DNA of 64,000 nucleotides. It comes from a virus. The DNA is taken from the IMG/VR virus record IMGVR_UViG_3300027852_000041; one strand, given 5' to 3'. The position numbers and the translations under genes were made by a program. Within the stretch, counting starts at the first letter, position 1. Each line of letters opens with the position of its first letter. Positions 1 to 27,758 of the stretch are shown in pieces. Below the pieces are notes generated by a model that was not told where the DNA came from, did not search any database, and saw only the letters and a program-made list of their open reading frames with translations.

Positions 1-590
1 GCTCCAACCTCTTTAGCTTTAATGCTGAAACAAAGGTCTTGTCCCATTGCAAACTCTGTCGCAACATAAAATTGTCCCAATCTGTTTTCCTCACAAATAA
101 TGTTGATGTCGGTGAACCAGGGAAATGCGAGTCGCTTAAAAATTTTGGCACTGCATAGGAAACCACACGTCCCGAAACCATCGGTTTGGAAAGGTTTCTT
201 TCGTACGCTAACTTTTTTTGGGTCTTCTGCATAAAAATCTCCGTTTTGCCATTTACAAACACTTGTTTTGCCCATATATTTTCCAGATTTAATTATTGCC
301 CATCCTGTTGCAATATTATTCTCAGGGTCCTGTTGAACAATTTTCCATAGTTCTATAAAAAATTCAGAAGGAAAAGCCTGGTCTGCATCAATCATCATAA
401 CAAAATCAAAATCATTATCAATAGCCAGCTTAACTATTGCGTTTCTGGCATCTACAACGTGTCTCGCCGCTACAAAATCGAATACATGAGGTAATGGCAC
501 CAGCATATTCCGCAGAGAAAGAGAAAAAGCCGATGGGTTATAAGGAATGCTCCAAGGAGTCCCTATAAAAACTTTAGGCAAATCACTCAT
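1..590 (-). CDS. GT-A fold (family-2-like) glycosyltransferase; C-terminal part lies beyond the window edge
   Basis: Own translation from ATG at 590..588 (MSDLPKVFIGTPWSIPYNP...DFDFVMMIDADQAFP...) stays open to position 1. It has a DxD-type motif IDAD. It is absent from the ORF track because there is no stop inside the window. Confidence 0.55.
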   Translation of the reverse strand, partial: MSDLPKVFIGTPWSIPYNPSAFSLSLRNMLVPLPHVFDFVAARHVVDARNAIVKLAIDNDFDFVMMIDADQAFPSEFFIELWKIVQQDPENNIATGWAIIKSGKYMGKTSVCKWQNGDFYAEDPKKVSVRKKPFQTDGFGTCGFLCSAKIFKRLAFPWFTDINIICEENRLGQFYVATEFAMGQDLCFSIKAKEVG

Positions 591-618
591 ATTCTTCAAA
601 GACAAGTTGTCCGGTATT

Positions 619-2427
619 TTAAGCTTTGTTTTGTAATCCTGCATATCTCTCCTTACACCACCAATAATTGTGTCCAACATAAGTATTTAGTTGTCTCGAA
701 GGAACCTTAACCCTATAATGAAGCTGGTCGCTTAACTCCTTCCCAGAATAAGGATTAACTTCTGAATCTCCTATATTTTTGTAATATCCACTATTTAGCC
801 CACCGCATACTTTCTTAATTGAGCATTCCAAACATTTTGGAGCAAAGATATTTGTTCTGTCGGAAAGCCATTTGGAATATTCAAGGTATGGCGAAAATTC
901 TTTAGGCAAAATGCTGTAATCCCACTCATAACCATCATGCATCACTTGAGGAATGTTACAAATATGTTTTTCATATCCTTTCAGCAGGCACATTGGGAAG
1001 TATCGTACATTAACCATAACGCCGGCAGAGGTTAAAATATCAATCGCTTCTTTCAGGTAAAAAGCAATTTGAGAATTTCTCCCCTGAAAATCCTGTTTAT
1101 CAAGATGAGACCATTCATTATAGGGGTTAAAATTAATAAAATTACTGATTAAGGGTTTAACCTTGGCAAAATACTTAGCCAACTCTATTAAATCTTCAAA
1201 ATTACTTGTTAAGACCGTATTAGTTCTGAATTTGAAATTATTACTGTTACATTTTTCTATGGCTTTATTAACTTTTGCGAAACCATTTTTTGTCTTTGTT
1301 ACTTTATTGTGGATATCTTCAGAACCATGAATAGAAAAAAGAATATCTTCAAGCCCGGCATCCCAAAATTCATCTAATTTTGGTTCTATTTTTTGCCCAT
1401 GTGTAATAACACAGGGGAATAATCCCAACTTTCTTGCTCCCCAAAGCCATTTAGCAAAATCAGGGATGATAGTTGGCTCCCCTCCACTAAAATCGCAGAA
1501 ACGATTTCCTCTCGCCACTCCATCAACCAGAACCCTTTCCATTTCTTCCCATGTTAAAAATCTCCTTTCCTTTTTTTCCATGTGAGAATAGTAGCAAAAC
1601 TCACAACTTAGGTCGCATATACGCCCAACATCTGCCTTGAATCGCCTTGTTGGAGGAAGCCGATACGTCCCATGCCATTCCATTTTATTGTTCAAGCAAA
1701 TATCTGCCCCCCTTACCTTCACGGTATTCATTATGGAAGAATACTCAGGTTTTTTGTCTTCGTTCCCTTCAGTCTCACGGTTGTAAACATATAATGGACG
1801 ATTTATAAAACTTATCTTTCTGGCTGTTTCCAACATTGGAAGAAACAAAGCTGAATCCCCGCAAGTTTGCCAATATTTGCCGGTAGAAGGGTCAACAAGA
1901 GTATCTGAAGACACGCTTTTAAACATTTCAGCCCTGAATGTTCTAAAATGAGAATACGCAATTTTAGCGTAACGTGCCGAGGTCGGGTCTTTTAATGGAC
2001 GGGAAACCCCCATTGTTACCATTGGTGTTCCATTCTTTTGCCCGTGATAAGTAACGTGCTGGCTATAAACCATATCAGCGGATGATTTTTTATAAGCAGT
2101 TACAATTTCCTGCAAAGCCTTCGTCCCCAAAAGCCAGTCATCACCATCAAGCCATGACACAATATCGTCATCTTCAAGATTTTCTATTTTTGATATCCCA
2201 TAAAGAAAGGAAGAAAGTGGAGAGCCTGAATTGCTATCCCGCCTATATGCTTCTACGCTTCCATTATGCCTCTGTATCTTCTCCCATGTCCTGTCAGTTG
2301 AAGCATCATCGACAATAATATGCCTCATGTTTATCCCATCGGTATCTTGGTCTTTGACAGACAAAATGCAGGCATTTATATACTTTGAAGCATTATATGT
2401 TGGTGAAACAATATGAAGTTTTTTCAT
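619..2427 (-). CDS. Fusion protein: N-terminal GT2 glycosyltransferase + C-terminal radical-SAM domain with a Cys-rich SPASM/twitch-like tail
   Basis: N-terminal part: HIVSPTYNASKY...IIVDDASTDRT and the DxD motif WLDGDDW. C-terminal part: CDLSCEFC (CxxxCxxC, nt 1594..1617), the SAM-binding FSGGEPT, and a C-terminal CLECSIKKVCGG. The start overlaps the upstream stop (TAATG). Confidence 0.8.
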   Translation of the reverse strand: MKKLHIVSPTYNASKYINACILSVKDQDTDGINMRHIIVDDASTDRTWEKIQRHNGSVEAYRRDSNSGSPLSSFLYGISKIENLEDDDIVSWLDGDDWLLGTKALQEIVTAYKKSSADMVYSQHVTYHGQKNGTPMVTMGVSRPLKDPTSARYAKIAYSHFRTFRAEMFKSVSSDTLVDPSTGKYWQTCGDSALFLPMLETARKISFINRPLYVYNRETEGNEDKKPEYSSIMNTVKVRGADICLNNKMEWHGTYRLPPTRRFKADVGRICDLSCEFCYYSHMEKKERRFLTWEEMERVLVDGVARGNRFCDFSGGEPTIIPDFAKWLWGARKLGLFPCVITHGQKIEPKLDEFWDAGLEDILFSIHGSEDIHNKVTKTKNGFAKVNKAIEKCNSNNFKFRTNTVLTSNFEDLIELAKYFAKVKPLISNFINFNPYNEWSHLDKQDFQGRNSQIAFYLKEAIDILTSAGVMVNVRYFPMCLLKGYEKHICNIPQVMHDGYEWDYSILPKEFSPYLEYSKWLSDRTNIFAPKCLECSIKKVCGGLNSGYYKNIGDSEVNPYSGKELSDQLHYRVKVPSRQLNTYVGHNYWWCKERYAGLQNKA

Positions 2428-3389
2428 TATTCTTCCATCACCGATTTAATTATAGAATCTAACTTTTTTAATTGTTTATTAATCTCATATTGTTCTACCA
2501 GCTTTTTCTTTTTCTTGCTTATCTGTTGTTTTTCTTCATTGCTTAACTTTTCAAACTGTCCAAGCAAATTAACAAAACTGTCTACTCCTGTAAAACTACA
2601 GTCCTTGCCGAACCTTTCTCTTGCCCCGCAAAAATCATGAATCAGCGGTATCAAGCCACTTCCCATGCTTTCTATTATAGAATTGCCAAAAGACTCAAAA
2701 AGAGAAGTAGAAAGATTGTATGATTTATCCTCAAACCAGGCAGGAAGATTTTTATTATCTACCCAGCCTTCAAAAAAAATGGTATCAGATAAATTCATTT
2801 TTTTTATCATATCAGATAAATATAGTTCATATCTGGGGTCTTGAAAACGACCAATAACATGAAATGTGTAATCCATGCCTTTTTTCTTGAGAGCATCTGC
2901 CAAATATAAAATCATCTGGGGATTTTTCTTATAATTAATCCAGCCAATCCATGCTATTTTATTGCCATACTTTTTTTTCTTCCACTTAAATAAATTGAAA
3001 TCAACCCCGTTCGGCAAAATATCCATCGAAGAAAGCGGTATTTTTGATTTTTCTTTTACCTGCTGCATTAATGTTTCTATTTCTTTACTTACGATTAAAA
3101 GCCTATCACAATTCAACCAATAAGTATTCAAAGGAACAGGCGTAAACAGTTCAAAAGAATGAAGCCTGCAAATTACCTTTGACTCTTTGGGATGTCGCAT
3201 TGCTTCCCGGAACATATCATCGCAAAATTCAAACCAGGTCAAATCATTTTTGCGCATCAAAATTCTTATTTGATCCTGGGGGATTAGTTCGTCAATGTAA
3301 AGAACTTCATGCTTCTTCCCAAGATGAGAAACCATGTGCCCATGATGAAAATCAAAAGTTTTGTATCTGTCAAAAATAACTATTTTCAT
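2427..3389 (-). CDS. GT-B fold glycosyltransferase (GT1/GT4-like)
   Basis: C-terminal motif ESFGNSIIESMGSGLIPLI matches the E-x-FG...E-(A/S)-M-x-x-G-x-P signature of GT4 enzymes. RBS GAGGAG lies upstream. Confidence 0.7.
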   Translation of the reverse strand: MKIVIFDRYKTFDFHHGHMVSHLGKKHEVLYIDELIPQDQIRILMRKNDLTWFEFCDDMFREAMRHPKESKVICRLHSFELFTPVPLNTYWLNCDRLLIVSKEIETLMQQVKEKSKIPLSSMDILPNGVDFNLFKWKKKKYGNKIAWIGWINYKKNPQMILYLADALKKKGMDYTFHVIGRFQDPRYELYLSDMIKKMNLSDTIFFEGWVDNKNLPAWFEDKSYNLSTSLFESFGNSIIESMGSGLIPLIHDFCGARERFGKDCSFTGVDSFVNLLGQFEKLSNEEKQQISKKKKKLVEQYEINKQLKKLDSIIKSVMEE

Positions 3390-3421
3390 GCATTCTCCTC
3401 TGTTAATGTTCCACGAGAAAC

Positions 3422-3472
3422 AAAAAAGGGGATTCCCAACATATTTTTATTTTACATTGAAAATCCCCTTTT
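3422..3472 (-). terminator. 11-bp perfect hairpin (AAAAGGGGATT / AATCCCCTTTT) with flanking T-runs on both strands
   Basis: Arms at 3424..3434 and 3462..3472. On the minus strand it is followed by TTTTTTG. It lies between the 198-aa late gene and the GT genes. The loop is large (27 nt), so confidence is moderate. Confidence 0.4.
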
Positions 3473-3529
3473 GTAAATATTTTCTCCTTTTTTTGATTTG
3501 GATAGAATTTTAACCCATTTTTCTCCTTC

Positions 3530-4126
3530 TTACATCCATAGTTTTACGTACCTCAAAACCACTTCCTGAATGATTAACTCACCCTCGGCATGATCGCCAC
3601 CACAGGTTAATTGTGTATGCACCCCGTAACCTGCCGTGAAAGTAGAAGCAGCAATAGTCACCGTGTCTTTGAATAAAAAAGTTTCGCTTATCCCGGTGGC
3701 CAGTGTTCTTTCGGAAGGGTCAGTAATCCCTGACGTGGTAGTGGCATCACCAATCGCGGCAGTAGAGGCGTTCGGGTTGACAGCGTTATAGGTACACTGC
3801 CAGTTAATTACGTTCCCTTTTGTCGCACTTGCTATCGTCTGGTAATAAACATCCAGATAAGACGCTCCCGTAGAGTCGAAATCATTGGGAAGTTTTACCA
3901 GAAAATCTAACTCATCACCAGTAGCAGGAGCAATCCCGCCCAAACCAGAAGAATTTGCTTCAGCCACGACACTTTTCGCGTTACCAGTTCCCAGCATCGA
4001 CCCAGCGCCGGCAGCATCTTTGGTACTGTACGACTGCATAATAGCCTGCCATGGTATCCGCAATTCTGCATACTTCGCAGTAGTGTCAGTTGGTTTTAAT
4101 TGTGAACTCCATCTTGTTACGGCCAT
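3530..4126 (-). CDS. Late (virion-associated?) beta-rich protein, unknown function
   Basis: 198 aa. RBS GGAGGT upstream. It is the last gene of the capsid operon and has Ser/Thr/Ala-rich stretches. Confidence 0.6.
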   Translation of the reverse strand: MAVTRWSSQLKPTDTTAKYAELRIPWQAIMQSYSTKDAAGAGSMLGTGNAKSVVAEANSSGLGGIAPATGDELDFLVKLPNDFDSTGASYLDVYYQTIASATKGNVINWQCTYNAVNPNASTAAIGDATTTSGITDPSERTLATGISETFLFKDTVTIAASTFTAGYGVHTQLTCGGDHAEGELIIQEVVLRYVKLWM

Positions 4127-4175
4127 AACTATTTACCTCCTTTTGGTATAAATGAGTTTGTGAACTCATTTTTAG

Positions 4176-4631
4176 TTACTGATCTGCTTTTCCACCATAT
4201 TTGGTGTCAACAAACATCCCATAAGCATGGTCGTTTGTCCCATCTAAATCTTCATCTGTGAACCCTTCAATCAAAAAAACAGGAGCGGTAGTCGTTTCAT
4301 CGTTGTCAATCCCGTCAGCCTCATTGGTAATGGTTGCCAATGCCACCACAGTATCTACTTGAATCTGCGCTGTAGTGTCCTCACATTTAGTAATAAAACG
4401 ATTCCCCTCTACTGTAGGGTAATACGGGCAGGTTGTTGAACTGTCCCCGGTCATTGCTTTAGCCGCAATCCCGAGAATATTTACATCGGTATCAATCGTA
4501 GCAACATAAAGGTAGCCTGCCGTAGAAACCAAAGGACTACCCTTTTTTATCGCCTCGCCAGTATATGGTGTTCCATACCTGATTTGATGATCCACTAATT
4601 GATAGGGTTCGAAAACTCTTTGTATCGCCAT
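4176..4631 (-). CDS. Head decoration-like protein (paralog of 4661..5137)
   Basis: Start moved to MAIQRVFEPY because GGAGGTAAACATG precedes it. It shares FEPY, KG..V, GY and ILG(I/V)AA blocks with the neighbouring 158-aa protein. The DUF2190-like pattern was recognised by eye only. Confidence 0.6.
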   Translation of the reverse strand: MAIQRVFEPYQLVDHQIRYGTPYTGEAIKKGSPLVSTAGYLYVATIDTDVNILGIAAKAMTGDSSTTCPYYPTVEGNRFITKCEDTTAQIQVDTVVALATITNEADGIDNDETTTAPVFLIEGFTDEDLDGTNDHAYGMFVDTKYGGKADQ

Positions 4632-4660
4632 GTTTACCTCCAATTAGTACTTTTTTTGAA

Positions 4661-5137
4661 TTACGCAGTCTGATCCCCGGCATTTTGATGCCTGGTGATT
4701 TTAAACAAAACCCTGCCATTAGTGCCAAGCTCATCCGAAGGATGCACGCCGGTTACAGTAATAACTGTTTCCGTGGTAGCATCTTCGTTCACCTCCATTA
4801 CCCCGGATGCCCCTTCAATATCACATTGTTTATGAACAAGAGCCTGGGCAGAATCTCCCGAACACTGTCCGGTAAAAACCGTATCTGGTGAATCATACAC
4901 AGGAACGTCCGCGTTTGAAGCCGTAGCAGCGGCAGCTCCGGCAACGCCTAAAAGGGAACCTACCGTTGCTGAAGCTGCTTTTATATACCCCGCGTTTCCA
5001 GGGTCTTTTCTTACAGCGTCACCTTTGGTAATTTTCGCGGCATCACTCGAAGAATGTTTATACCAGTGCATTGGGGCAGAACTGTCACCTTCATGGTTGT
5101 AAGGCTCAAAACCACAAGGGCTATCTAAATTTGCCAT
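4661..5137 (-). CDS. Head decoration-like protein (paralog of 4176..4631)
   Basis: 158 aa. RBS GGAGGTAAACATTATG. It contains GFEPY...ITKGDAV...GSLLGVAGAAA and sits directly downstream of the capsid gene. Confidence 0.6.
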   Translation of the reverse strand: MANLDSPCGFEPYNHEGDSSAPMHWYKHSSSDAAKITKGDAVRKDPGNAGYIKAASATVGSLLGVAGAAAATASNADVPVYDSPDTVFTGQCSGDSAQALVHKQCDIEGASGVMEVNEDATTETVITVTGVHPSDELGTNGRVLFKITRHQNAGDQTA

Positions 5138-5158
5138 AATGTTTACCTCCTTTTTTTG

Positions 5159-6103
5159 TTAATCTCCCGCGCTACCGTAAACACCAACATAGTCCGGCCA
5201 TCCGCAAGCGAATCTTTCGTAAATGAAATAAAGAAGATTATCGGACAAATCTTCCACCGTCATTTTTGTTCTTGGTTTTTCTCTCCACTGGAACTGAAGA
5301 GGGTATTCTTTCCCCATAGATGCTTTGTCCGCCAACAGATACCAAGCATCCGCATCAACATTCCCCAACCAATACGGCCAAATTATTGACTCGATTTCGG
5401 TTCTTTTTCTGAGAGCGTTAATAGCGTTTTCAGCATTTTCCGGGTATTTGTCGGAATCTAAAAGCTCAGTAGCTTTTTGCTGCAACTGATGGGGGGTTAA
5501 AAGAATTTTGGGCGAGATAGCCTTCGGCAACCCTGCATCGTTCTTGAAGGTATAAAAAGCATTCACCGCAGCCCAAAGACTTGTAGCGGTTAAATCCGCG
5601 TCGGTAGAAGGTTTATTCGATTGAGTATCCCCGTTTTTCATGGCGTGGGAAGTACTGAAAAGATACTCAGTGGCAGACCGATTCCCACTTTGCCAGGCAG
5701 GGAGCGAATCAAAACCTCCGGTAAAAACTGAAGAAGCGTAATATTGTATCGTGGCTTCAGCGGCTTCTCTCATTACCTGCGGAAAACGGGAAATAACACT
5801 GTATCTCTCATCCGCCTGCGCTTCATGAGTGATGGTCATATACACGCCATACGCAATACTCTCAAGGTCGGTGTAATACCCTTCCCCAGGTTCGACGGCA
5901 GAATAATTTGTACCTTCATCCTTTTTTGATAAAAGCGGAACACCCTCGATAGTCATAAATCTTTCATACTGGTACCCGAAAGAAGACACATTGAAAACCT
6001 GATTTATGACGGCGAAAGGATCTGCCTTTTTCCAGGGCGAGAACAAAATCTGGTCAAGCCCGGCTTTCATTAAATTTGCAACATTAGCTCTAATAACAGC
6101 CAT
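5159..6103 (-). CDS. Major capsid protein (HK97-fold candidate)
   Basis: 314 aa. Its position after the scaffold-like gene, its size and its composition are typical of a capsid protein. Strong RBS. Confidence 0.65.
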   Translation of the reverse strand: MAVIRANVANLMKAGLDQILFSPWKKADPFAVINQVFNVSSFGYQYERFMTIEGVPLLSKKDEGTNYSAVEPGEGYYTDLESIAYGVYMTITHEAQADERYSVISRFPQVMREAAEATIQYYASSVFTGGFDSLPAWQSGNRSATEYLFSTSHAMKNGDTQSNKPSTDADLTATSLWAAVNAFYTFKNDAGLPKAISPKILLTPHQLQQKATELLDSDKYPENAENAINALRKRTEIESIIWPYWLGNVDADAWYLLADKASMGKEYPLQFQWREKPRTKMTVEDLSDNLLYFIYERFACGWPDYVGVYGSAGD

Positions 6104-6109
6104 GATATT

Positions 6110-6655
6110 TTACCTCCTTATTGATTCTTTTCTTTTAATCATATCACTAAGCACTTCCTTAATTGTGCCTAGCCCGTTTGCGCTCATTAATTTTTTCATT
6201 CCCTCTATTTGCTGCGCCTGCGTTTCTAAAAACTGGGAATTTTTATGAGCTATTCTGGCCTTACGTTCAGCGTTATACATATCCAGCGGCTTTTCCATCA
6301 AGATGGCTTCAGGAATGCCTGTGGTAGTATCAACAGGGTTTCCTTCCATTAATGCCTTCCCCGCATTTCTGTCTACAACAACCCAGCCTTTTTTCTTTAA
6401 TTCTTCTACTCTCCTGGGTTCTCTCCTTACGTGCCTATATTTCTTATCCTTTTTGCCATCTACGTGGAAAAAATCCTTTTCCTGTGAATAGTCTGCCACA
6501 AATTCAGTTACCGGAGAATCATTCACCGAAGAATCAGTTTTTTCCTGAGAAATATTTGTTTCCATAGTTTTTTTCCCTTTATTTTGCATTCTTGTTTTTC
6601 GTGCTTTCTCCCTGACCTCCGGGTTGCTAAACCCCCTGGCTTTTTTCTCTTCCAT
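6110..6655 (-). CDS. Basic Lys/Arg-rich late protein, unknown
   Basis: 181 aa. It lies between the scaffold and capsid genes. RBS AAAGGA. Confidence 0.55.
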   Translation of the reverse strand: MEEKKARGFSNPEVREKARKTRMQNKGKKTMETNISQEKTDSSVNDSPVTEFVADYSQEKDFFHVDGKKDKKYRHVRREPRRVEELKKKGWVVVDRNAGKALMEGNPVDTTTGIPEAILMEKPLDMYNAERKARIAHKNSQFLETQAQQIEGMKKLMSANGLGTIKEVLSDMIKRKESIRR

Positions 6656-6659
6656 TTAG

Positions 6660-7553
6660 TTATCCTTTCAAAAAAGCATCAAGATTATTAGCAACTTCCT
6701 CCAATTCCTTTTCTCCGGTTATCCCTAACTTTGTCATAAACGCCTTGCCTTTGTCATCAAGCGTATTCCCGGTATTACCGGAATTATTAGCAGGGGCACC
6801 AGCACCTTCCGCTATTTGCCCGGACTTTTTGTTCAAGTCGGCTAAAGCGGCTTGCCTCCCTTCCTCAATATATTTATTTTTCAATTCCTGAAGAGAAACA
6901 TTTTTGTCCTGGGTGTTTTCCTCCGCTGTTTTTTGCTGCGAAGCTAACGCTGCCGAGGCTCTTTCTTTTTTCCCAAGATGCCGTTCCTTCGCCAGCAAAG
7001 CTCTCACAAACTCAGGGTTTGACATTGCCTGATAAACAATATTGTCGGGTACTTTAGAAATTTCATCCTGAAAATCATTATACCCCGGCAAATTTTGTGC
7101 TGTTTTCTTCTCCTTGTCATGGGCAATCATCATTTGCTTAATAAAAGGAGTAAGCGCCTTTAAAGGAGTCGAAATTAATTGTTCAGCCAACTCTGCTTCA
7201 ATTTCTTCTATGCCGGGTTGCTGAACATTGGCAGGCTGGTTTTGCGAAGGCTGAGCGGCATTGTTGTCCACGCCGCCATTCGTTTCATCAAACCAATTAC
7301 TTTCTCCTGCCCCATCATCCAAAGTCGAAGTATCTTTTTGAGATAATTCCTCAAGTTTTTTCTCCAACTTTTCTATTCTCAACACCTTTGCCTGCAAAGC
7401 TTCGTATGGGACTGTTTCCGGTATTTTTGCACCATCTTTATTCTCTGCTCCTTTCGTGGAAGACGGCTCCACGCCCTCTTTAACGTCCTGGTTTTCCAAG
7501 AACGGCGTCTCCTCGGAACTATTGTCTTTAACGCCCGTTTGTTCTTCTGCCAT
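6660..7553 (-). CDS. Scaffolding protein candidate
   Basis: 297 aa, acidic, coiled-coil-like (LEKKLEELSQK...). It sits between the portal and capsid genes. RBS AGGAGG. Confidence 0.5.
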   Translation of the reverse strand: MAEEQTGVKDNSSEETPFLENQDVKEGVEPSSTKGAENKDGAKIPETVPYEALQAKVLRIEKLEKKLEELSQKDTSTLDDGAGESNWFDETNGGVDNNAAQPSQNQPANVQQPGIEEIEAELAEQLISTPLKALTPFIKQMMIAHDKEKKTAQNLPGYNDFQDEISKVPDNIVYQAMSNPEFVRALLAKERHLGKKERASAALASQQKTAEENTQDKNVSLQELKNKYIEEGRQAALADLNKKSGQIAEGAGAPANNSGNTGNTLDDKGKAFMTKLGITGEKELEEVANNLDAFLKG

Positions 7554-7564
7554 AGTTAAACCTC

Positions 7565-7948
7565 CTAAAAATTAGGGTCTTTCGACCAGTGTTGCTTATG
7601 CTTTCTTTTTTTTCTCAACCACCTGACATCACTCATTACGGTATCATATAAATCCTTAATCTCCAGAATCCTTCCTCTGGCTTCCCTGTAGTCTCCCCAA
7701 TCGCTAATAATTTTTTTATCTGTCATTCCCTGAAGGCATAATTCCGCTTTTCTTACCTCTAATGTTTTTATGAAAAATTTTCCAAGGTCAGAATTGAAGA
7801 TAAAATCCTCTAATTTTAACGCTCGTTCTTCTCTCGCGGCTCTATCAAGTTTTCTTTGCAAGTCAGTCAAAGGCTTTTTTATCTTTGATGTTGCCGGCTT
7901 TTGCGTTACCCCACCTTTTTTTTCTTTCATGTCTTTCGCATCTGTCAC
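7565..7948 (-). CDS. Hypothetical late protein
   Basis: 127 aa. GTG start overlaps the portal stop (GTGA). RBS GGGAG. Confidence 0.5.
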   Translation of the reverse strand: MTDAKDMKEKKGGVTQKPATSKIKKPLTDLQRKLDRAAREERALKLEDFIFNSDLGKFFIKTLEVRKAELCLQGMTDKKIISDWGDYREARGRILEIKDLYDTVMSDVRWLRKKRKHKQHWSKDPNF

Positions 7949-9654
7949 GAAGCTTCTCCCTCATTTTGCTGTTTGCTGATTTCTCGCATTATCTCAACGG
8001 CGATGGGCTGTATTTCCTCCGGCAAAGCGGCAACTGGAATCATCGCCTCTCTTTTTTTTACAAAATCTGACGTTTCCTTAAAATCATACAAATTGTCCAT
8101 CATTTTTAAAACATTAGGAAGGTCAAACTGGTATGTGGGATCGTTCTGTAAAATATTGGCTATTTCCCTCAGAAGGTTAGGGAATTGCTGTTGCTTGCTA
8201 TATTTTGAATATTCAGTTTCTACCGCTGTAGCGGCAAAATTAAATTCAATATTTTTAAAAAATCCATCTTCCTTCCCGCGTTTCAGAATATTGAAAGTCT
8301 TTTCTGCCAAAGGCCGCAAAGTTAATCTGTCTGCCTGCTGTATAAATAAGGTAAAAACTTTTTCAGCGGCAGCCATCAAGCCTGTAAATTCTCCCAAAGT
8401 CTCTCTCTTGGATTGCCCTATGCCTACCGTTTCAGCCGTAGCCCTGCTTGTTTTTTCAATTTCTCTGTCAAGAATACTGTGCATATTCCCGAATGCCCCA
8501 AAATTTACTTCCGGGGTGTCAACAATTTTCACATCATCATGATTTTTTAGAAACCAGAGAGAATCCGGCTTACGGATTAAATCATCTTCCGTTAAGTCTG
8601 AGCGTTCCAATACCTGAACAATGTTTGTCAACGACCTTTTATGCTGGTCAAGAAACAAATCGTGATGTTCTTTTTGCTCCACAATAAGAGATTCTACCGC
8701 CTGCAAAGCTCCTTTCCCATAAAAAGAACCGGGAACTATCTGATAAATAGAGGCAATGAAAGGCTTATAATAATTTTTTTCTCCTTCCTCCTCTGTTTCA
8801 AAATAGTTGGTAGAAGGTTCGCATCTGATGATAGTTTCTATTTTGTCTCCATTAAGAACAGCAGTGATAACATATTCTTCCCACACCCTATTCTTAACTT
8901 CAAATTCACCCCACTGTTCTATCAAGTCATATACCGGGGTGCCTGTAGCATCGGCGTTTGCTTCGCTTCCATCACTTTCTTTTGTTATAAAAGCATCTTT
9001 TTGCAAAGTCTTCTTTTTTATTAGTTTGTCTAGGTCGAAATATACGTTTTCCATCCCAGCATAAAGATAACCTGCTTTTTCGGGGTTATCAATTACCGAA
9101 GGCGCCTTCAGCCTAGAAAGTTGAGATATGCTTTTTTGGAATAAATGATAGCAATAACGCATATCATCAATTCTCCCCGGTTTATTACAGGAAGGATCAG
9201 GACCAAAATTTTCAGCTGTTACAAATTCCGTAAAAGGATATAATCCTTTCGGATATATTTTGCAAAAAGATGTTCCTATGTTAGCTGCTTCTTTAAATAA
9301 TTCTACGGCGGTTAAATAAAAGTTTGATTTTCTATCGAGGATATGGGCAAATTCTTTTTGAAGTTTCAGGAGGTCCGTTTGTTCTATGTCCGGGTTTTTT
9401 ATGGTAATCCAGTCCGCAACAGAGAAAATCGCGGCCATTATTCTTGGAGCGATTGTCTCTATAATCTGGTCGCCCTTCGGCATTATCAGGTTAGATTCCC
9501 AATCATGCTCCCTGTCGTCTTGCTGGGAAAGGTACAATTTCCTGTATTTTTCCCAGTCCGTAGATTTTTGTTTTACAAAAGCACTGGAAGCATCAAAGTT
9601 TTCCTGAAGCTGCTTTTTTGCTCTTTCCAGAATTTTTGCAGTTGGTTTTTTCAT
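7945..9654 (-). CDS. Portal protein candidate
   Basis: 569 aa after moving the start to ATG 9654 (RBS GAGG 7 nt upstream). Size and position downstream of the terminase fit a portal. Confidence 0.65.
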   Translation of the reverse strand: MKKPTAKILERAKKQLQENFDASSAFVKQKSTDWEKYRKLYLSQQDDREHDWESNLIMPKGDQIIETIAPRIMAAIFSVADWITIKNPDIEQTDLLKLQKEFAHILDRKSNFYLTAVELFKEAANIGTSFCKIYPKGLYPFTEFVTAENFGPDPSCNKPGRIDDMRYCYHLFQKSISQLSRLKAPSVIDNPEKAGYLYAGMENVYFDLDKLIKKKTLQKDAFITKESDGSEANADATGTPVYDLIEQWGEFEVKNRVWEEYVITAVLNGDKIETIIRCEPSTNYFETEEEGEKNYYKPFIASIYQIVPGSFYGKGALQAVESLIVEQKEHHDLFLDQHKRSLTNIVQVLERSDLTEDDLIRKPDSLWFLKNHDDVKIVDTPEVNFGAFGNMHSILDREIEKTSRATAETVGIGQSKRETLGEFTGLMAAAEKVFTLFIQQADRLTLRPLAEKTFNILKRGKEDGFFKNIEFNFAATAVETEYSKYSKQQQFPNLLREIANILQNDPTYQFDLPNVLKMMDNLYDFKETSDFVKKREAMIPVAALPEEIQPIAVEIMREISKQQNEGEAS

Positions 9655-9700
9655 TTGTTGCCTCAAAATATTGGTAAAACTACTTCTAACCAATTAAGAA

Positions 9701-9758
9701 GAGCGGAGGCGAGAAGACTGCCCCGCTCACTATGACGATATTAGTCTCTCGATATTAT
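9701..9758 (+). promoter_or_regulatory. Hairpin + ATATTA(T) box element, copy A
   Basis: Stem GAGCGG (9701..9706) / CCGCTC (9723..9728), inner GGC/GCC pairs and a purine-rich loop GAGAAGA. CGATATTA follows at 9736..9743 and CGATATTAT at 9750..9758. It lies upstream of plus-strand gene 9784. Confidence 0.5.
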
Positions 9759-9783
9759 CAACCTTAAACAAAAGGAGATTATT

Positions 9784-9987
9784 ATGCCCAACAAACCAAG
9801 AAAATTCATTCGGTATCAAGTCCGCAATAAAAGAAAAATCGTACATGGCGGAATTACCGAAAGAACTATAGAAGAACGATTGGGTGAACACCAACAAAAA
9901 TGGCCTGGCGCTACAATAACGCAAGTTGGGCCAAAAGTTACAGAAGAAACCGCCCGTAAATGGGAAAAGGATAAAGGCTATTCCTAA
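9784..9987 (+). CDS. Small GIY-YIG-like protein (possible free-standing nuclease remnant)
   Basis: 67 aa. Strong RBS AAAGGAG. The pattern IRYQV...KIVHGGITERTIEERLGEH resembles the GIY...YIG...R..EH layout. It is on the opposite strand to all flanking late genes. Confidence 0.4.
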   Translation: MPNKPRKFIRYQVRNKRKIVHGGITERTIEERLGEHQQKWPGATITQVGPKVTEETARKWEKDKGYS

Positions 9988-10172
9988 TCTTTCATAGGCA
10001 TAGCTGTACCATCAAATTTGCCAGTTTCTTTTTCAAAATAATATTCCCGTTTATTAATCGCTAATTTTGTAAAAAACGGGGATACGGATATTTCTATCTT
10101 GTTTCCTGTAACTAAATCTTTGTACTCAAAAGGTTGAATTATTGCTTTTTCCATAACTTCCATTATTTGCAT
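9984..10172 (-). CDS. Hypothetical protein
   Basis: 62-aa ORF. The start codon is uncertain (three in-frame ATGs, weak RBS). Confidence 0.35.
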   Translation of the reverse strand: MQIMEVMEKAIIQPFEYKDLVTGNKIEISVSPFFTKLAINKREYYFEKETGKFDGTAMPMKD

Positions 10173-10345
10173 GAAATATTGATTTTAATCAAGCGTTCAA
10201 CTTGGCGCAAAAAGGGATCGCACCGCTCAGTTAAATCGTTAAGGGAACCAAAATTGTCAAAAAAATTAAAAGTAATGCTTAAAAAAATATCTATTTTTAA
10301 TAAAGGAAACAGAATTTTAATGGAAAAACTCAAAGACACTTAGCC

Positions 10346-10543
10346 TCAATCTGTATCGTCATGGGCATCCAATATTACCTCCATACACTCTTCATCATAT
10401 TCCCAAATTAAAGGACTACCATGAATGTCTTCGTGTCCCACAATAAAACCATGTTTTTTAGACACGGATGCAATCTCTTCAAGAAAAGCATCAATTTTTT
10501 TATTTTCTACTTTCTTTGTAAATTTAGCATTCCATCTTTCCAT
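10346..10543 (-). CDS. Hypothetical acidic protein
   Basis: Start moved to MERWNAKF because AGGAGGAATTTTTATG precedes it. 65 aa. Confidence 0.55.
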   Translation of the reverse strand: MERWNAKFTKKVENKKIDAFLEEIASVSKKHGFIVGHEDIHGSPLIWEYDEECMEVILDAHDDTD

Positions 10544-10568
10544 AAAAATTCCTCCTAACAAATCACTG

Positions 10569-10613
10569 GAGAGGACGGCGAGAGGCCGCCGCCTCTCAGT
10601 TCTGCGATATTAT
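10569..10613 (+). promoter_or_regulatory. Hairpin + ATATTAT box element, copy B
   Basis: Stem GAGAGG (10569..10574) / CCTCTC (10592..10597). The loop ACGGCGAGAGGCCGCCG is nearly identical to the copy A loop. CGATATTAT at 10605..10613. A second GAGAGG at 10580..10585 offers an alternative left arm. Confidence 0.5.
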
Positions 10614-10628
10614 GAGTAGTATATTAAA

Positions 10629-10860
10629 TAATTTGCCGCAACCCCCTTTATTTTCTCGGCTAATATCGTTCTAACAGCGACGATTTTTTGTCGGGATAGG
10701 AGGTGAGCCACATGGCAAAGAAAGTCAAAAAGACCTATCAAATAGGTCGTGACGCTGGCACTGGCAGATTTATCCCTGTTGCAGTTGCCAAGCGTCGCAA
10801 GAAAACTGCTGTCGTTGAAACTGTTCAACGATAGCTACACTTTAGGGTTGCGGCAAATTA
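10629..10860. repeat. 16-bp perfect inverted repeat pair flanking a small opposite-strand gene
   Basis: TAATTTGCCGCAACCC at 10629..10644 and its reverse complement GGGTTGCGGCAAATTA at 10845..10860. Confidence 0.8.
10712..10834 (+). CDS. 40-aa highly basic protein
   Basis: MAKKVKKTYQIGRDAGTGRFIPVAVAKRRKKTAVVETVQR. RBS GGAGGTGA 6 nt upstream. It is too short for the ORF track and lies on the opposite strand to its neighbours. Confidence 0.55.
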   Translation: MAKKVKKTYQIGRDAGTGRFIPVAVAKRRKKTAVVETVQR

Positions 10861-10872
10861 ACTAAATAGGTA

Positions 10873-11070
10873 TTAACTAAAAGCTACCTTAACTTTTGCT
10901 GCTGCCTCGTATGTCTTTCTAGTAACTTTCTTTTCAGCCAAAAGGAGTAATACCCGTGCCTCTTTTATTGACAATCCATTAACTATTTTAATAATGTCAT
11001 CTATCTTGTCTTTATTTTGGCCTGCTGCCTGTTTTGCAAAATCATCATTTAAGAGAACCATAGGGTACAT
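10873..11070 (-). CDS. Hypothetical protein
   Basis: 65 aa. RBS AAAGGAAA. Confidence 0.5.
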   Translation of the reverse strand: MYPMVLLNDDFAKQAAGQNKDKIDDIIKIVNGLSIKEARVLLLLAEKKVTRKTYEAAAKVKVAFS

Positions 11071-11199
11071 AATGTTTTCCTTTTAAATAAAGTTTAGCAT
11101 AATCGTTAAATATGTATTTGTTTTTACTTTATGAAGTTCAAGTTGTTCTTTTGCGTATAACACAATGTCCATAAAATTCCCTTAACTTTTACTCATTTT

Positions 11200-11216
11200 A
11201 TGACAAAAGGCAGACA
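11200..11216 (+). repeat. 17-mer ATGACAAAAGGCAGACA, copy 1
   Basis: Identical to 15960..15976. Both copies lie in intergenic DNA upstream of minus-strand genes. Confidence 0.8.
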
Positions 11217-11255
11217 AAGTACTTCATCCAATAACCAACATTTTCGTTACCTGAG

Positions 11256-11450
11256 CTATTTCTTTTTCGATTTTATAAGTTTTTCCCAACTAAAGATTTC
11301 GTTAGGGTGTTTTTTCTCCCAGAAAGCCTTCTTTGCTTCTAAATCAGCATCTAATTCTAAATACGCTTTCCCGTATTTCAATTTGCCTGCCTTCGCATCT
11401 TTTACTATTAGTTTCCTACGAGTCTTTTCTTTTTTTTTTGGTTTTGGCAT
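11256..11450 (-). CDS. Lys-rich hypothetical protein
   Basis: 64 aa. RBS AAAGGAAA. Confidence 0.5.
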   Translation of the reverse strand: MPKPKKKEKTRRKLIVKDAKAGKLKYGKAYLELDADLEAKKAFWEKKHPNEIFSWEKLIKSKKK

Positions 11451-11542
11451 TACCGTTTCCTTTAGCTTTTTGCGTTACTTATACAAGAATAGACGCACAT
11501 AATTTAAAAATAGTCGCCACTTCTCAGTTTAATGCTAAAGCA

Positions 11543-11585
11543 AAAGTGACAAAACTTGCCATTAAATGCAGTAAATTGTCACTTT
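11543..11585 (-). terminator. 10-bp hairpin downstream of the large terminase gene
   Basis: AAAGTGACAA (11543..11552) / TTGTCACTTT (11576..11585) with a 23-nt loop. There is no clean U-tract. Confidence 0.25.
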
Positions 11586-11628
11586 AATTTTAAATTGCAC
11601 ATATAAAAAAGAATGTCAAGACTTATTT

Positions 11629-13284: not shown

Positions 13285-13287
13285 AAA

Positions 13288-13866
13288 TTATTCACTTTTC
13301 TCTGAAGGGGTAACATCAATCATAGCCTTCTCAGCTTCCAAAAGCTTCCTCTTGTCTTCCTCAATCTGTAAAAACAATTTCCCGTATTCCGAAAAAGCCC
13401 GTTTCCCCTTCCTCTTCCCGCCAGCAGAATCCATATTCTCCTCGGCCATCGAATAAAACTTCTCTGACAAACGAACCACCATTTCAAGATATTTCGGATA
13501 AGTATCGGAAAGAACAGACAAAACTTTCCCGTCCCCATCAACAAGATTATGCTTCTTTTCCCCATCTATGGCAAGATTCTCAACAATCCACTTATCGAGC
13601 AGGCCCTTAACAATAATCGCGCTGGAAAGGCTGTCCAGGACAAGAGCAACCCCCTGATACTTGCTGAAGCTATCCTCCGCGATTTTGGCTTCTATCTTCA
13701 GATTCCTCCGAACTTTCCCAACATACTTCTTCAAATCCATGTGTTCATTTGGTAATTGCCCGGCAGTGACAAAAGAAACCGCGAGCTTCCGGGACTGTTC
13801 CTCATCCAGATCCTCTTCATTAACAAAAGGAACTAAAGTCTGCTTCGGTGTGTTAGTAACTGACAT
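13288..13866 (-). CDS. Putative terminase small subunit
   Basis: Start moved to MSVTNTPKQ (RBS AGGAGGTAGAAATG). 192 aa. The call rests on its position immediately upstream of terL. Confidence 0.4.
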   Translation of the reverse strand: MSVTNTPKQTLVPFVNEEDLDEEQSRKLAVSFVTAGQLPNEHMDLKKYVGKVRRNLKIEAKIAEDSFSKYQGVALVLDSLSSAIIVKGLLDKWIVENLAIDGEKKHNLVDGDGKVLSVLSDTYPKYLEMVVRLSEKFYSMAEENMDSAGGKRKGKRAFSEYGKLFLQIEEDKRKLLEAEKAMIDVTPSEKSE

Positions 13867-14110: not shown

Positions 14111-14186
14111 TGGCAGTGGCAGAAGGATTCGAACCTTCGTATATCCGGATCAAAGCCGGATGCGTTAACCTCTTCGCCATGCCACT
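14111..14186 (-). tRNA. tRNA-Gln (anticodon TTG) with encoded CCA
   Basis: Hand-folded cloverleaf. Acceptor AGTGGCA/TGCCACT. Anticodon stem TCCGG/CCGGA with loop CTTTGAT. T arm GAAGG-TTCGAAT-CCTTC. Discriminator G plus CCA. 76 nt. Confidence 0.85.
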
Positions 14187-27605: not shown

Positions 27606-27758
27606 ATGAATGAAAAAATGTCGCTATCAGAAGATTTACAATATTGGCGCATCGAAAGACCGGATGAATGGATAATGGATAGATTTATTCGTAAGGCAAA
27701 AAAACTTGAGTTACTGGTTAAGCAACAACAGAGAATAATAGAAAGGAAATCAAAATGA
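27606..27758 (+). CDS. 50-aa hypothetical protein
   Basis: Own translation MNEKMSLSEDLQYWRIERPDEWIMDRFIRKAKKLELLVKQQQRIIERKSK. Its stop overlaps the dcd start. Confidence 0.4.
   Translation: MNEKMSLSEDLQYWRIERPDEWIMDRFIRKAKKLELLVKQQQRIIERKSK

Follow-up and report, generated by a model that had tools for sequence, protein, structure and literature searches.

Why would a phage carry, among its head genes, a protein that joins a family 2 glycosyltransferase (GT2) to a radical SAM (rSAM) enzyme? The gene in question lies in the viral IMG/VR record IMGVR_UViG_3300027852_000041, and the window, that is, the whole stretch of DNA analyzed, is 64,000 nucleotides long. The features on which the argument rests are all on the minus strand.

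1..644, minus strand: ORF3, a conserved accessory gene cut short by the left end of the window (L001 gene call; 233 aa in the relative L011)
619..2427, minus strand: GT2-rSAM fusion gene from the ORF list, 602 aa, ATG start, stop codon at 619-621
622..1170, minus strand: family-specific C-terminal domain of the fusion, residues 420-602, with NFNPY, RYFPxC480 (nt 988-990), DxYEW, and C532-x2-C535-x5-C541 (nt 805-834); putative single auxiliary [4Fe-4S] site
1171..1650, minus strand: rSAM core of the fusion (partial TIM barrel, PF04055), residues ~260-419, with CX3CX2C (C271, C275, and C278; nt 1594-1617) and GGE at 315-317
1723..2427, minus strand: GT2 domain of the fusion (GT-A fold, PF00535), residues 1-235, with VDD at 39-41, DGDD at 94-97 (nt 2137-2148), and G190-D191
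2427..3389, minus strand: GT4 (GT-B) glycosyltransferase gene, 320 aa (PF00534, E = 2.7e-16; phrog_2170, glycosyltransferase)
3530..4126, minus strand: p198, a conserved Ser/Thr-rich protein of 198 aa, always encoded after the capsid gene and before the enzymes
4176..4643 and 4661..5137, minus strand: ORFs for two small paralogous proteins (155 and 158 aa) filling the minor-capsid or decoration slot behind the capsid gene
5159..6103, minus strand: HK97-like major capsid protein gene, 314 aa (PF25209 Phage_capsid_4; PF10124 Mu-like gpT; PHROG major head families)

A preliminary description of this DNA, made from the letters alone, read the fusion as one polypeptide with the hallmarks of both enzymes, and the motifs sit where it placed them: SPTYN at residues 8-12, VDDASTD at 39-45, DGDD at 94-97, CDLSCEFC at 271-278, GGEPT at 315-319, and CLECSIKKVCGG at 532-543. 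Two domains were recognized by Pfam: Glycos_transf_2 (PF00535; residues 6-171; E = 1e-18), which scored 68.3 bits where the cut-off is 23.3, and Radical_SAM (PF04055; residues 267-419; E = 3.4e-20), which scored 73.3 bits where the cut-off is 29.5. Independent assemblies from JGI, ENA, and Logan contain 13 proteins with the same order, GT2 and then rSAM, at 32 to 84% identity in those that have the two halves; full-length homologs are 43 to 84% identical. The collinear homologs (identity, 31 to 84%) have a conserved linker between the two halves, and a second assembly carries a protein identical to that of the window. AlphaFold2 modeling, which the preliminary description had recommended, returned the whole chain as one confident unit (mean pLDDT, 92.5; pTM, 0.90), suggesting that the two domains are fixed relative to each other. 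Joining of two adjacent genes by a sequencing or assembly error can practically be dismissed, given the identical protein on a second assembly, the divergent collinear homologs in three data sources, and the conserved linker in a confident single-chain model. The ORF, the Pfam matches, the model, and the invariant catalytic residues described below all point to a genuine single polypeptide, and probably an active one.

In the GT2 half, residues D40, D41, D94, D96, and D97 and the pair G190-D191 are invariant among 10 collinear homologs, and we infer that D191 is the catalytic base. Foldseek and phmmer together matched this half to the GT-A enzymes TarS (Foldseek, 5tzi; E = 2.8e-11), TarP (Foldseek, 6h1j), SpsA (Foldseek, 1qg8), and K4CP; the VDD and DSDD motifs of TarS align with the VDD and DGDD motifs of the fusion. 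The half thus has all the sequence and fold hallmarks of a GT2 enzyme, with glycosyl transfer as its putative activity. Stand-alone members of the GT2 subfamily are uninformative about the fusion, since none of their 76 IMG/VR loci has an rSAM, GT4, capsid, or p198 homolog within 8 kb.

The rSAM half is conserved in its core. The three cysteines of the CX3CX2C motif (C271, C275, and C278) show no variation in the close set, and across 99 relatives each is kept in 90% or more; G315, G316, and E317 (GGE) are invariant in all 99. Six beta/alpha repeats are visible in the AlphaFold2 model. The nearest solved relative is BlsE, which decarboxylates a sugar nucleoside (PDB 7vob; PMC3715490), both by profile (E = 1.4e-31) and by fold (Foldseek E = 7.7e-12 over 338 aligned columns), and the two proteins have the CX3CX2C and GGEP motifs in common; SuiB, viperin, and SkfB were also among the fold matches. 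The sequence similarity to BlsE ends after the barrel core (profile positions 11-177), and the C-terminal signature of the fusion family (NFNPY, RYFPxC, DxYEW, and CX2CX5C) had no alignment to it. We also compared the protein with the NCBIfam equivalogs MoaA, PqqE, NirJ, BlsE, viperin, and anSME and rejected each of these assignments, as every score was far below its cut-off (for example, 59.8 against 284 for MoaA, 49.4 against 381 for PqqE, 46.6 against 180 for viperin, and 34.6 bits against 400 for the BlsE/cytosylglucuronate decarboxylase model TIGR04466).

The C terminus was initially described as carrying extra cysteine clusters typical of SPASM or twitch domains. One conserved set of four cysteines is indeed present: C480, C532, C535, and C541 are invariant in the 99 relatives and also in 43 stand-alone members of the family, and they would be enough for a single putative auxiliary cluster, not for several. 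The CX2CX5C motif of the fusion aligns with the SuiB SPASM motif 'KCLSCGLLKICEG', so part of the resemblance stands, together with the remote cysteine. The remaining SPASM cysteines are absent, however. A SPASM domain requires at least seven cysteines, arranged as Cx2-4Cx5Cx2-3Cx14-18C plus two remote cysteines, and binds two clusters (PMC5682303). In the fusion family, the conserved C-terminal cysteines are limited to those of C532-x2-C535-x5-C541 and the remote C480, no cysteine occurs within the 18 residues that follow C541, and the Pfam SPASM profile (PF13186) matched neither the whole protein at E ≤ 0.01 nor residues 410-602 at E ≤ 1. The profile itself works, because it matches a neighboring rSAM protein in locus L013. 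No Pfam family matched residues 420-602. We therefore rejected a canonical SPASM domain. The region is probably not a typical twitch domain (BtrN or MoaA type) either, although four invariant cysteines would suit the single auxiliary cluster, bound by 3-4 Cys, of such a truncated SPASM-like extension.

The fusion gene is on the same strand as, and downstream of, the terminase, portal, and capsid genes. Its start codon overlaps the stop codon of the GT4 gene (TAATG), and its 3′ end overlaps the start of ORF3 at position 644. The preliminary description's placement of such a fusion in a phage late operon, a setting with no precedent known to it, is therefore well founded. The arrangement recurs in seven phage loci from two capsid lineages. 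In six SU10-like loci, p198, GT4, the fusion, and ORF3 occur in that order and follow the capsid gene, with GT4 directly upstream of the fusion; the seventh comes from a phage whose capsid belongs to another family (PF13252), and there too the fusion is within the head module. ORF3, which belongs to phrog_1574 (function unknown), is kept in five lineages; its signature, which includes an invariant D-x-D-Q, is weakly GT-A-like. As an outright glycosyltransferase it was rejected: PF13641 scored below its cut-off (E = 0.0033), and the best glycosyltransferase match among PDB profiles was nonsignificant (E = 0.23).

Homologs of p198 (31 to 35% identity) occupy the same position in L004, L092, and L093. 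A homolog search with p198 returned only three close relatives. Its serine and threonine fraction (0.21) is the highest in the cassette, it had no Pfam or PHROG match, and its AlphaFold2 model, built from a four-sequence alignment, was unusable (pLDDT, 49). We regard p198 as a candidate glycan acceptor. The 155- and 158-aa proteins are weakly similar to each other and to the proteins at the same position in L004 and L092. In phage SU10, the place behind the capsid gene is taken by gp10, predicted to be an Ig-like minor capsid protein (PMC9509320); no word beginning with "glycos" occurs in that cryo-EM paper.

We propose that the conserved, late-expressed cassette of SU10-like podophages, with the bifunctional fusion enzyme at its core, whose products (p198, GT4, GT2-rSAM, and ORF3, with or without SAM methyltransferases) appear to be soluble, glycosylates a head protein and that the rSAM half tailors the sugar, a reading to which we give an even chance. 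The same enzymes could instead modify a host envelope glycopolymer, such as O-antigen, teichoic acid, capsule, or exopolysaccharide, and so block superinfection or alter the infected cell's surface. Such modification of host envelope glycopolymers is the work of phage GtrB-type and TarP-type enzymes, the wall teichoic acid glycosyltransferases TarS and TarP are the top structural and sequence matches of the GT2 half, GtrB-like O-antigen conversion families are among the PHROG matches, and one bacterial relative adjoins a Wzx-type flippase. The GT4 gene (GC content, 0.33) and the fusion gene (0.38) are also AT richer than the neighboring head genes (0.43 to 0.48), which is compatible with moron-like acquisition. 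However, the similarity to TarS and TarP (~20% identity) is generic for the GT-A fold, and the cassette is found inside the head module, translationally coupled there, in two unrelated capsid lineages. It also has no flippase or initiating phosphoglycosyl transferase, none of its proteins has a transmembrane segment, and no integrase or lysogeny gene was present among the ORFs scanned. On balance, we consider an envelope target unlikely.

A target in the phage DNA would be a second departure from head glycosylation, with the cassette glycosylating modified bases and the rSAM half making or tailoring the attached group. Hypermodification of DNA by phage glycosyltransferases is known (Pyle et al. 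2024, cited in PMC12619734), and the phage encodes a dCTP deaminase and a Mom-like DNA modification protein. Some members of the rSAM family lie outside glycan cassettes, and the homolog in Campylobacter phage CP220 sits among nucleotide metabolism genes (thymidine kinase and phosphoesterase). Against this, the Mom-like and nucleotide genes of the window are some 25 to 30 kb away on the opposite strand, a scan of early-region ORFs of 187 aa or longer turned up neither a thymidylate synthase-like hydroxymethylase nor a DNA kinase, and all seven loci have the cassette inside the head module. We regard modification of the DNA as very improbable.

The family to which the rSAM half belongs is uncharacterized and comprises 194 representative clusters at E ≤ 1e-30. 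It is joined to at least three GT2 subfamilies and in both domain orders: its architectures include GT2(N)-rSAM, rSAM(N)-GT2, PF13641-rSAM, PF13712-rSAM, TPR-containing forms, a methyltransferase-GT2-rSAM triple fusion, and stand-alone proteins. Among 58 long representatives, PF00535 was present in 19, PF13641 in 9, and PF10111 in 6. The architecture thus recurs and is not unique: metagenomes contain dozens of GT2+rSAM proteins, which appear in databases simply as "radical SAM protein." What does hold of its initially suggested novelty is that we found no characterized example: the NCBIfam scores were far below their cut-offs, a BFVD fold search gave no viral protein matching both domains (best TMq, 0.36), and full-text literature searches returned no paper on the GT2-rSAM architecture, the two domains being handled separately in the one paper that names them both.

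The gene neighborhoods of the family are rich in glycan genes. One bacterial rSAM-GT2 gene lies in the order FlgK, flagellin, FliW, CsrA, epimerase, rSAM-GT2, GT9, and TPR-GT2. Other loci contain GT4, a B12-rSAM protein, a Wzx-type flippase, methyltransferases, Epimerase_2, FdtA, and RmlD, and TylF-type sugar O-methyltransferases are present in relatives. In 25 genome loci, found by a scan with a five-sequence alignment, TPR repeats were encoded by 24 of the 89 flanking genes and GT2 domains by at least 13 of the 89, counts that are phylogenetically redundant as the majority of the loci come from Syntrophobacteraceae. The flippase, seen at a single bacterial locus, points to a lipid-linked polysaccharide there rather than to a protein acceptor. 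Cellular relatives are nearly all from metagenome-assembled genomes of anaerobes, which fits an oxygen-sensitive enzyme. The repeated GT2 fusions in both orders and the location in glycan cassettes lend support to the early suggestion that radical chemistry may be coupled to glycosyl transfer.

Does the radical act on the sugar or on the protein? As in SPASM and twitch maturases or anSME, the rSAM half could act on a protein acceptor, by cross-linking, epimerizing a residue, or oxidizing Ser or Cys, with the GT2 half glycosylating the same protein. The peptide maturases SuiB and SkfB are, with anSME, among the best PDB matches, the CX2CX5C motif aligns with that of SuiB, and protein-binding TPR domains are often fused to or adjacent to members of the family. 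BlsE outranks the peptide maturases, however, and the sugar nucleotide enzymes, sugar O-methyltransferases, and glycosyltransferase fusions more simply fit a sugar substrate. Furthermore, the rSAM core of stand-alone members starts near residue 5, too close to the N terminus for a peptide recognition domain to fit, and no RiPP recognition or other peptide-binding domain precedes the core. The TPR domains could serve the glycosyltransferase half alone, as in FlmG (PMC7591256). We therefore find a protein substrate for the radical distinctly unlikely, and the rank of BlsE, the early start of stand-alone members, and the TylF-type methyltransferases of relatives lead us to infer that the substrate of the rSAM half is a sugar.

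Under the proposed head glycosylation with a tailored sugar, the GT2 half would move a sugar from a host nucleotide-sugar to the acceptor. The rSAM half would cleave SAM reductively to give a 5′-deoxyadenosyl radical, which would take a hydrogen atom from the sugar, while this is still on the nucleotide-sugar donor or once it has been transferred, and the putative auxiliary cluster would accept an electron or give it back. The outcome may be a redox tailoring of the sugar, such as formation of a keto sugar, epimerization, or a BlsE-like decarboxylation; these reaction types are guesses from analogy. GT4, ORF3, and the methyltransferases might then extend and cap the glycan. The likeliest acceptor would be a protein of the head surface, namely the capsid protein or p198, which is co-conserved.

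To our knowledge, sugar-acting rSAM enzymes are known almost only from antibiotic pathways and none from protein or virion glycosylation. Tentatively, and with more doubt than conviction, we suggest that the family comprises new rSAM enzymes for sugar tailoring within protein glycosylation, acting in flagellin and TPR-glycosyltransferase islands of anaerobic bacteria and on the heads of phages. If this is true, phage capsids would show a novel radical-modified sugar or even a radical-forged linkage between sugar and protein. A sizeable, uncharacterized rSAM family is now tied to glycosyl transfer by repeated independent fusions and by gene neighborhoods, and the compact, soluble phage versions are suited to biochemistry. 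Should the model hold, phages of anaerobes would turn ordinary host nucleotide-sugars into unusual capsid sugars with a single fused enzyme. This would be a new chemistry for virion glycosylation, with a bearing on immune or receptor shielding and on phage stability, and a new tailoring enzyme would become available for glycoengineering. Flagella may be decorated by the same chemistry, as the bacterial relatives beside flagellin suggest.

How does the fusion compare with systems that are already understood? TarS, TarP, SpsA, and K4CP are soluble inverting GT-A enzymes that share with the GT2 half its fold, its nucleotide-binding motif, and its DxD motif. Identity is only ~20%, none of the four is fused to an rSAM domain, and their acceptors (teichoic acid and spore or capsule glycans) need not hold for the fusion. 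BlsE likewise stands alone in the blasticidin S antibiotic pathway and is neither fused to a glycosyltransferase nor borne by a phage. The SPASM enzymes anSME, SuiB, PqqE, and AlbA have a core in the same rSAM subgroup as the fusion, and their known substrates are peptides or proteins; they have at least seven cysteines, in contrast to the three motif cysteines and one remote cysteine conserved in the fusion family. The twitch-domain sugar enzymes, BtrN and also HygY and SpeY, would match the fusion in logic, as an rSAM cluster and one auxiliary cluster act together on a carbohydrate C-H bond in oxidation or epimerization. The similarity to them is nevertheless very weak (the BtrN profile matches the core only, with an E value of 2.6e-4), and the cysteine pattern of the fusion is the CX2CX5C part of SPASM, not that of twitch domains. 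BtrN, HygY, and SpeY act on free aminoglycoside intermediates and have no glycosyltransferase fusion.

Parallels to the whole cassette come from protein glycosylation. We know of no rSAM enzyme in mycobacteriophage virion glycosylation, and our literature search found none described in flagellin O-glycosylation islands with TPR-glycosyltransferases. A bacterial rSAM-GT2 relative stands between flagellin, FliW, and CsrA on one side and a TPR-GT2 gene on the other. TPR proteins are enriched beside the rSAM family, although the phage fusion itself has no TPR domain. FlmG is a GT-B glycosyltransferase that attaches pseudaminic acid to flagellin, and its TPR domains serve to bring in the protein acceptor (PMC7591256). 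Flagellin glycosylation and the proposed phage system would both be cytoplasmic, and both would act on a self-assembling surface protein. In mycobacteriophages, phage-encoded glycosyltransferases are believed to act in the cytoplasm, where they would decorate capsid and tail proteins (Freeman et al. 2023, cited in PMC12619734), and glycosyltransferase genes go with structural genes there as they do in the fusion cassette. The mycobacteriophages are another phage lineage, the host here is presumably anaerobic, and glycosylation here is putative. With these differences, the proposed glycosylation of the head would parallel both the cytoplasmic glycosylation of flagellin in bacteria and the glycosylation of mycobacteriophage capsids.

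The preliminary description had read a single polypeptide joining a GT2 glycosyltransferase to a radical SAM (rSAM) domain, and the gene bears this out. It is one ORF of 602 amino acids with an ATG start (619..2427, minus strand), in which Pfam places Glycos_transf_2 at residues 6-171 (E = 1e-18) and Radical_SAM at residues 267-419 (E = 3.4e-20), both well over the curated cut-offs. All of the motifs named in that description are present in the ORF.

Motifs of the fusion protein (residue numbers of the fusion)
Residues 8-12, N-terminal half: SPTYN
Residues 39-45, N-terminal half: VDDASTD
Residues 94-97, N-terminal half: DGDD
Residues 271-278, C-terminal half: CDLSCEFC
Residues 315-319, C-terminal half: GGEPT
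Residues 532-543, C-terminal half: CLECSIKKVCGG

A frameshift or assembly artefact is ruled out by a second, independently assembled contig encoding an identical protein, by collinear homologs, among which the GT2-rSAM linker is conserved, and by a confident single-chain model; we regard the probability of an artefact as negligible. The GT2-then-rSAM order is common to 13 proteins from JGI, ENA, and Logan assemblies (32 to 84% identity where both halves are present), and when 1.84 billion representatives were searched exhaustively, a further collinear relative emerged, P0114 (31% identity). The AlphaFold2 model of the whole chain has a mean pLDDT of 92.5 and a pTM of 0.90, values that, in a two-domain protein, suggest a defined mutual orientation of the domains. 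With intact catalytic motifs in both halves, the fusion is, judging from sequence, almost certainly real and functional.

The window covers most of a phage genome of ∼66 kb. As had been proposed, the fusion gene lies in a late operon, co-oriented with the terminase, portal or adaptor-like, and capsid genes.

Minus-strand gene order around the fusion gene
11629-13284, minus: large terminase
7945-9693, minus: portal or adaptor-like protein
Between the portal or adaptor-like and capsid genes, minus: two unassigned genes
5159-6103, minus: major capsid protein
After the capsid gene, minus: three small proteins of 158, 155, and 198 aa (the last being p198)
2427-3389, minus: GT4 glycosyltransferase
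619..2427, minus: GT2-rSAM fusion
Beyond the fusion gene, running off the window's left end, minus: ORF3

The GT4 stop codon overlaps the fusion start codon (TAATG), and ORF3 starts 26 nt inside the 3′ end of the fusion gene, overlaps that fit one translationally coupled late operon. By homology, the phage is SU10-like, as its relatives L004, L092, and L093 match SU10_portal and SU10_adaptor. In SU10, the predicted Ig-like minor capsid protein gp10 fills the slot between capsid protein gp9 and adaptor gp11 (PMC9509320). Two of the relatives carry a Cpn10/GroES co-chaperonin gene directly after the portal gene (L004, 4055-4330; L092, 5086-5346); no Cpn10/GroES Pfam match was found among the window ORFs tested in the corresponding region.

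The GC contents of the GT4 (0.33) and fusion (0.38) genes are lower than those of the adjacent head genes (0.43 to 0.48) and the window average (0.41) (positions 619-3389 versus 3530-6103), and this AT richness relative to their neighbors hints at horizontal acquisition of both. L001 and L002, two related-phage contigs assembled with MEGAHIT from the same sample, each end inside ORF3, ∼630 bp past the fusion gene, and the window starts there too; the shared end probably arose where assembly broke off in a region common to co-occurring strains. Elsewhere on the minus strand, a lone tRNA-Gln gene (anticodon TTG; 14111-14186) lies between the terminase region and upstream genes. The tail or virion module has a 2294-aa ORF (48698-55582), unusually big for a 66-kb podophage-like genome and without a Pfam match at E ≤ 0.001. 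A possible receptor-binding or fiber protein of 279 aa (46602-47441) has an Lcl C-terminal domain (PF07603; E = 8e-17) at its end.

Six SU10-like loci (the window, also seen as L001; L002/L011; L004; L092; L093; and L133) share the gene order capsid, small proteins, p198, optional methyltransferases, GT4, fusion, and ORF3, with cassette protein identities of 29 to 52%. In the L011 phage (84% identical), the cassette runs on with a 233-aa ORF3 and a class-I SAM methyltransferase-like gene before structural genes follow. The L093 methyltransferases include a TylF-type sugar O-methyltransferase, and P0005, a metagenomic protein, joins three domains in the order methyltransferase, GT2, rSAM. A distant collinear fusion, P0015 (32% identity), belongs to a phage of a different capsid family (PF13252), where its gene is again part of the head module; it overlaps the 588-aa gene before it and lies two genes ahead of the capsid gene. 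In IMG/VR, the full fusion occurs on only one contig apart from the window's own lineage, the stand-alone family rSAM on three contigs, and the stand-alone GT2 subfamily on hundreds, in unrelated contexts; a BFVD fold search returned no viral protein matching both domains.

The GT2 half keeps the nucleotide-binding aspartate pair (D40 and D41) and a DxD-type motif (D94, D96, and D97), and its invariant G190-D191 sits where the catalytic base is expected. Its sequence and fold are similar to those of TarS, TarP, SpsA, and K4CP, all soluble GT-A enzymes. The TarS/TarP-like and GtrB-like similarities, a flippase at one bacterial family locus, and the low GC content of the two enzyme genes would suit a cassette that modifies a host envelope polymer. 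We consider this unlikely, as the GT-A similarity is generic, the position in the head module recurs in two phage lineages, the ORFs scanned include no integrase, and the cassette has neither a flippase nor, in any of its proteins, a predicted membrane segment. Glycosylation of DNA by the cassette is brought to mind by two other genes of this phage.

Genes related to DNA modification
32280-32930, plus: Mom-like DNA-modification protein (phrog_1384, E = 2e-53; PF25680, E = 2.6e-33, over the cut-off)
27755-28318, plus: early-region dCTP deaminase homolog (phrog_1663, E = 4e-34)

However, the early ORFs scanned include no thymidylate-synthase-like hydroxymethylase and the cassette is far from the replication module, which makes a DNA acceptor highly improbable. 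The Mom-like gene directly follows a DnaC-like helicase loader gene, and DNA modification in this phage probably proceeds independently of the glycosyltransferase cassette.

In the rSAM half, CX3CX2C and GGE are both retained. Among solved structures, the nearest relative of this half is BlsE, which acts as cytosylglucuronate decarboxylase in the blasticidin S pathway (family profile E = 1.4e-31; Foldseek E = 7.7e-12 over 338 columns), followed by SkfB, SuiB, PqqE, viperins, GDGT-MAS, and MoaA. No curated NCBIfam model was reached, the best matches (MoaA, PqqE, NirJ2, BlsE, and viperin) all being several-fold under their cut-offs, and the fusion is therefore a member of none of the named rSAM families. 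Matches to SuiB, SkfB, and anSME, together with TPR partners, would be expected of an rSAM half directed at protein, akin to peptide maturases; yet BlsE ranks above all three, a recognition domain is lacking, and the neighboring genes encode sugar enzymes, making such a role quite unlikely. We think it probable that the rSAM half has a glycan-related role.

The wider family points the same way. The exhaustive search recovered 194 representative clusters at E ≤ 1e-30, and about half of the best 150 representatives are long and multidomain. A set of 58 long representatives carries PF00535 (19/58), PF13641 (9/58), PF10111 (6/58), TPR (4/58), or methyltransferase (2/58) domains. As the GT2 domain may precede or follow the rSAM domain and represents at least three subfamilies, the sequences point to repeated independent fusion, a pattern that is classical evidence of a functional link. 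Intein splicing domains (PF14890) also occur in 3 of the 58 (P0107-P0247 set, alignment A4).

Gene neighborhoods agree with this link. One bacterial locus reads FlgK, flagellin, FliW, CsrA, NDP-sugar epimerase, rSAM-GT2, GT9, and TPR-GT2; a Nitrospirota locus reads GT-C-like gene, GT4, B12-rSAM, GT2-rSAM, GT4, and Wzx-type flippase; and further family loci, two of them virus-like contigs, contain methyltransferases, GT4, Epimerase_2, FdtA, and RmlD. TPR and GT2-TPR genes lie downstream of the family gene at one Syntrophobacteraceae locus, and across 25 phylogenetically redundant reference-genome loci, 24/89 flanking genes encode TPR and at least 13/89 GT2 domains. In the flagellin glycosyltransferase FlmG, a TPR domain binds the protein acceptor (PMC7591256). 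On the virus-like contig L010, with HNH, NUMOD4, DNA polymerase A, and clamp-loader-like genes, a 13-kb glycan cassette (618-13797) surrounds a stand-alone family rSAM gene (three GT4, two GT2, GT17, GT25, Epimerase_2, FdtA, RmlD, and one methyltransferase). One counterexample to the glycan setting is Campylobacter phage CP220 (L091, record 139333-140349). There, a stand-alone protein homologous to the rSAM half (30% identity) has thymidine kinase, phosphoesterase, and helicase genes as neighbors instead of glycosyltransferases, so the roles of the family may extend beyond glycans. CP220-type phages carry an unusual load of 11 to 12 rSAM genes (PMC2853527).

Cellular relatives come almost entirely from anaerobe MAGs (Syntrophobacteraceae, Desulfobacteraceae, Desulfarculales, and Clostridia), as would suit an oxygen-sensitive enzyme. 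An rSAM domain 82% identical to that of the fusion (L094, 1288-2328) lies on a 2.6-kb contig in a Thermodesulfobacteriota MAG bin from a tar biofilm; the contig probably derives from a related phage. Both findings give a hint of the host.

We propose that the GT2 half would transfer a sugar from a host nucleotide-sugar and that the rSAM half would, before or after transfer, abstract a hydrogen atom from that sugar with a 5′-deoxyadenosyl radical, a putative auxiliary cluster handling the electron. The outcome could be oxidation, epimerization, or BlsE-like decarboxylation, after which GT4, ORF3, and the methyltransferases would lengthen and cap the glycan. The acceptor would most likely be a head-surface protein, either the capsid protein or p198, the latter a candidate because it is co-conserved with the cassette and has its highest Ser+Thr content (21%). 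We give this full model, virion acceptor included, an even chance.

The only residues invariant in 99 family members are G315, G316, E317, S365, N403, N429, R475, P478, C480, C532, C535, and C541, and the four cysteines are likewise invariant among 43 stand-alone members. The preliminary description had assigned extra cysteine clusters of SPASM/twitch type to this region. There are indeed four invariant cysteines beyond CX3CX2C, but they suffice for one [4Fe-4S] cluster only, a single putative auxiliary-cluster site. Their CX2CX5C lines up with 'KCLSCGLLKICEG' in the SPASM domain of SuiB and thus probably descends from a SPASM-like ancestor. SPASM domains are defined by at least seven cysteines, a Cx2-4Cx5Cx2-3Cx14-18C motif plus two remote ones (PMC5682303), of which the fusion family lacks the fourth and fifth motif cysteines and one remote cysteine. 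Pfam SPASM, which does match a neighboring rSAM protein in locus L013, matched neither the whole fusion nor its C-terminal part alone; a canonical SPASM domain is ruled out on both counts. A signature peculiar to the family (NFNPY, RYFPxC, DxYEW, and CX2CX5CxG) marks the last 180 residues, a region covered by no Pfam model. The C terminus is, from its sequence, a reduced, single-site SPASM derivative, and the SPASM/twitch label is only partly correct.

The fusion, of predicted function, is relevant to enzymologists and phage glycobiologists alike. A full-text literature search found no paper describing a GT2-rSAM architecture, consistent with the earlier impression that it was uncharacterized, and databases name its relatives just "radical SAM protein." GT2 and rSAM are well-known superfamilies, and phage glycosyltransferase cassettes near structural genes are already known, so the fusion is not categorically new. 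What is new is an uncharacterized rSAM family that has a C-terminal domain specific to it and a putative single-cluster site reduced from SPASM, that is repeatedly fused to GT2 domains, and that is present in phage head operons.
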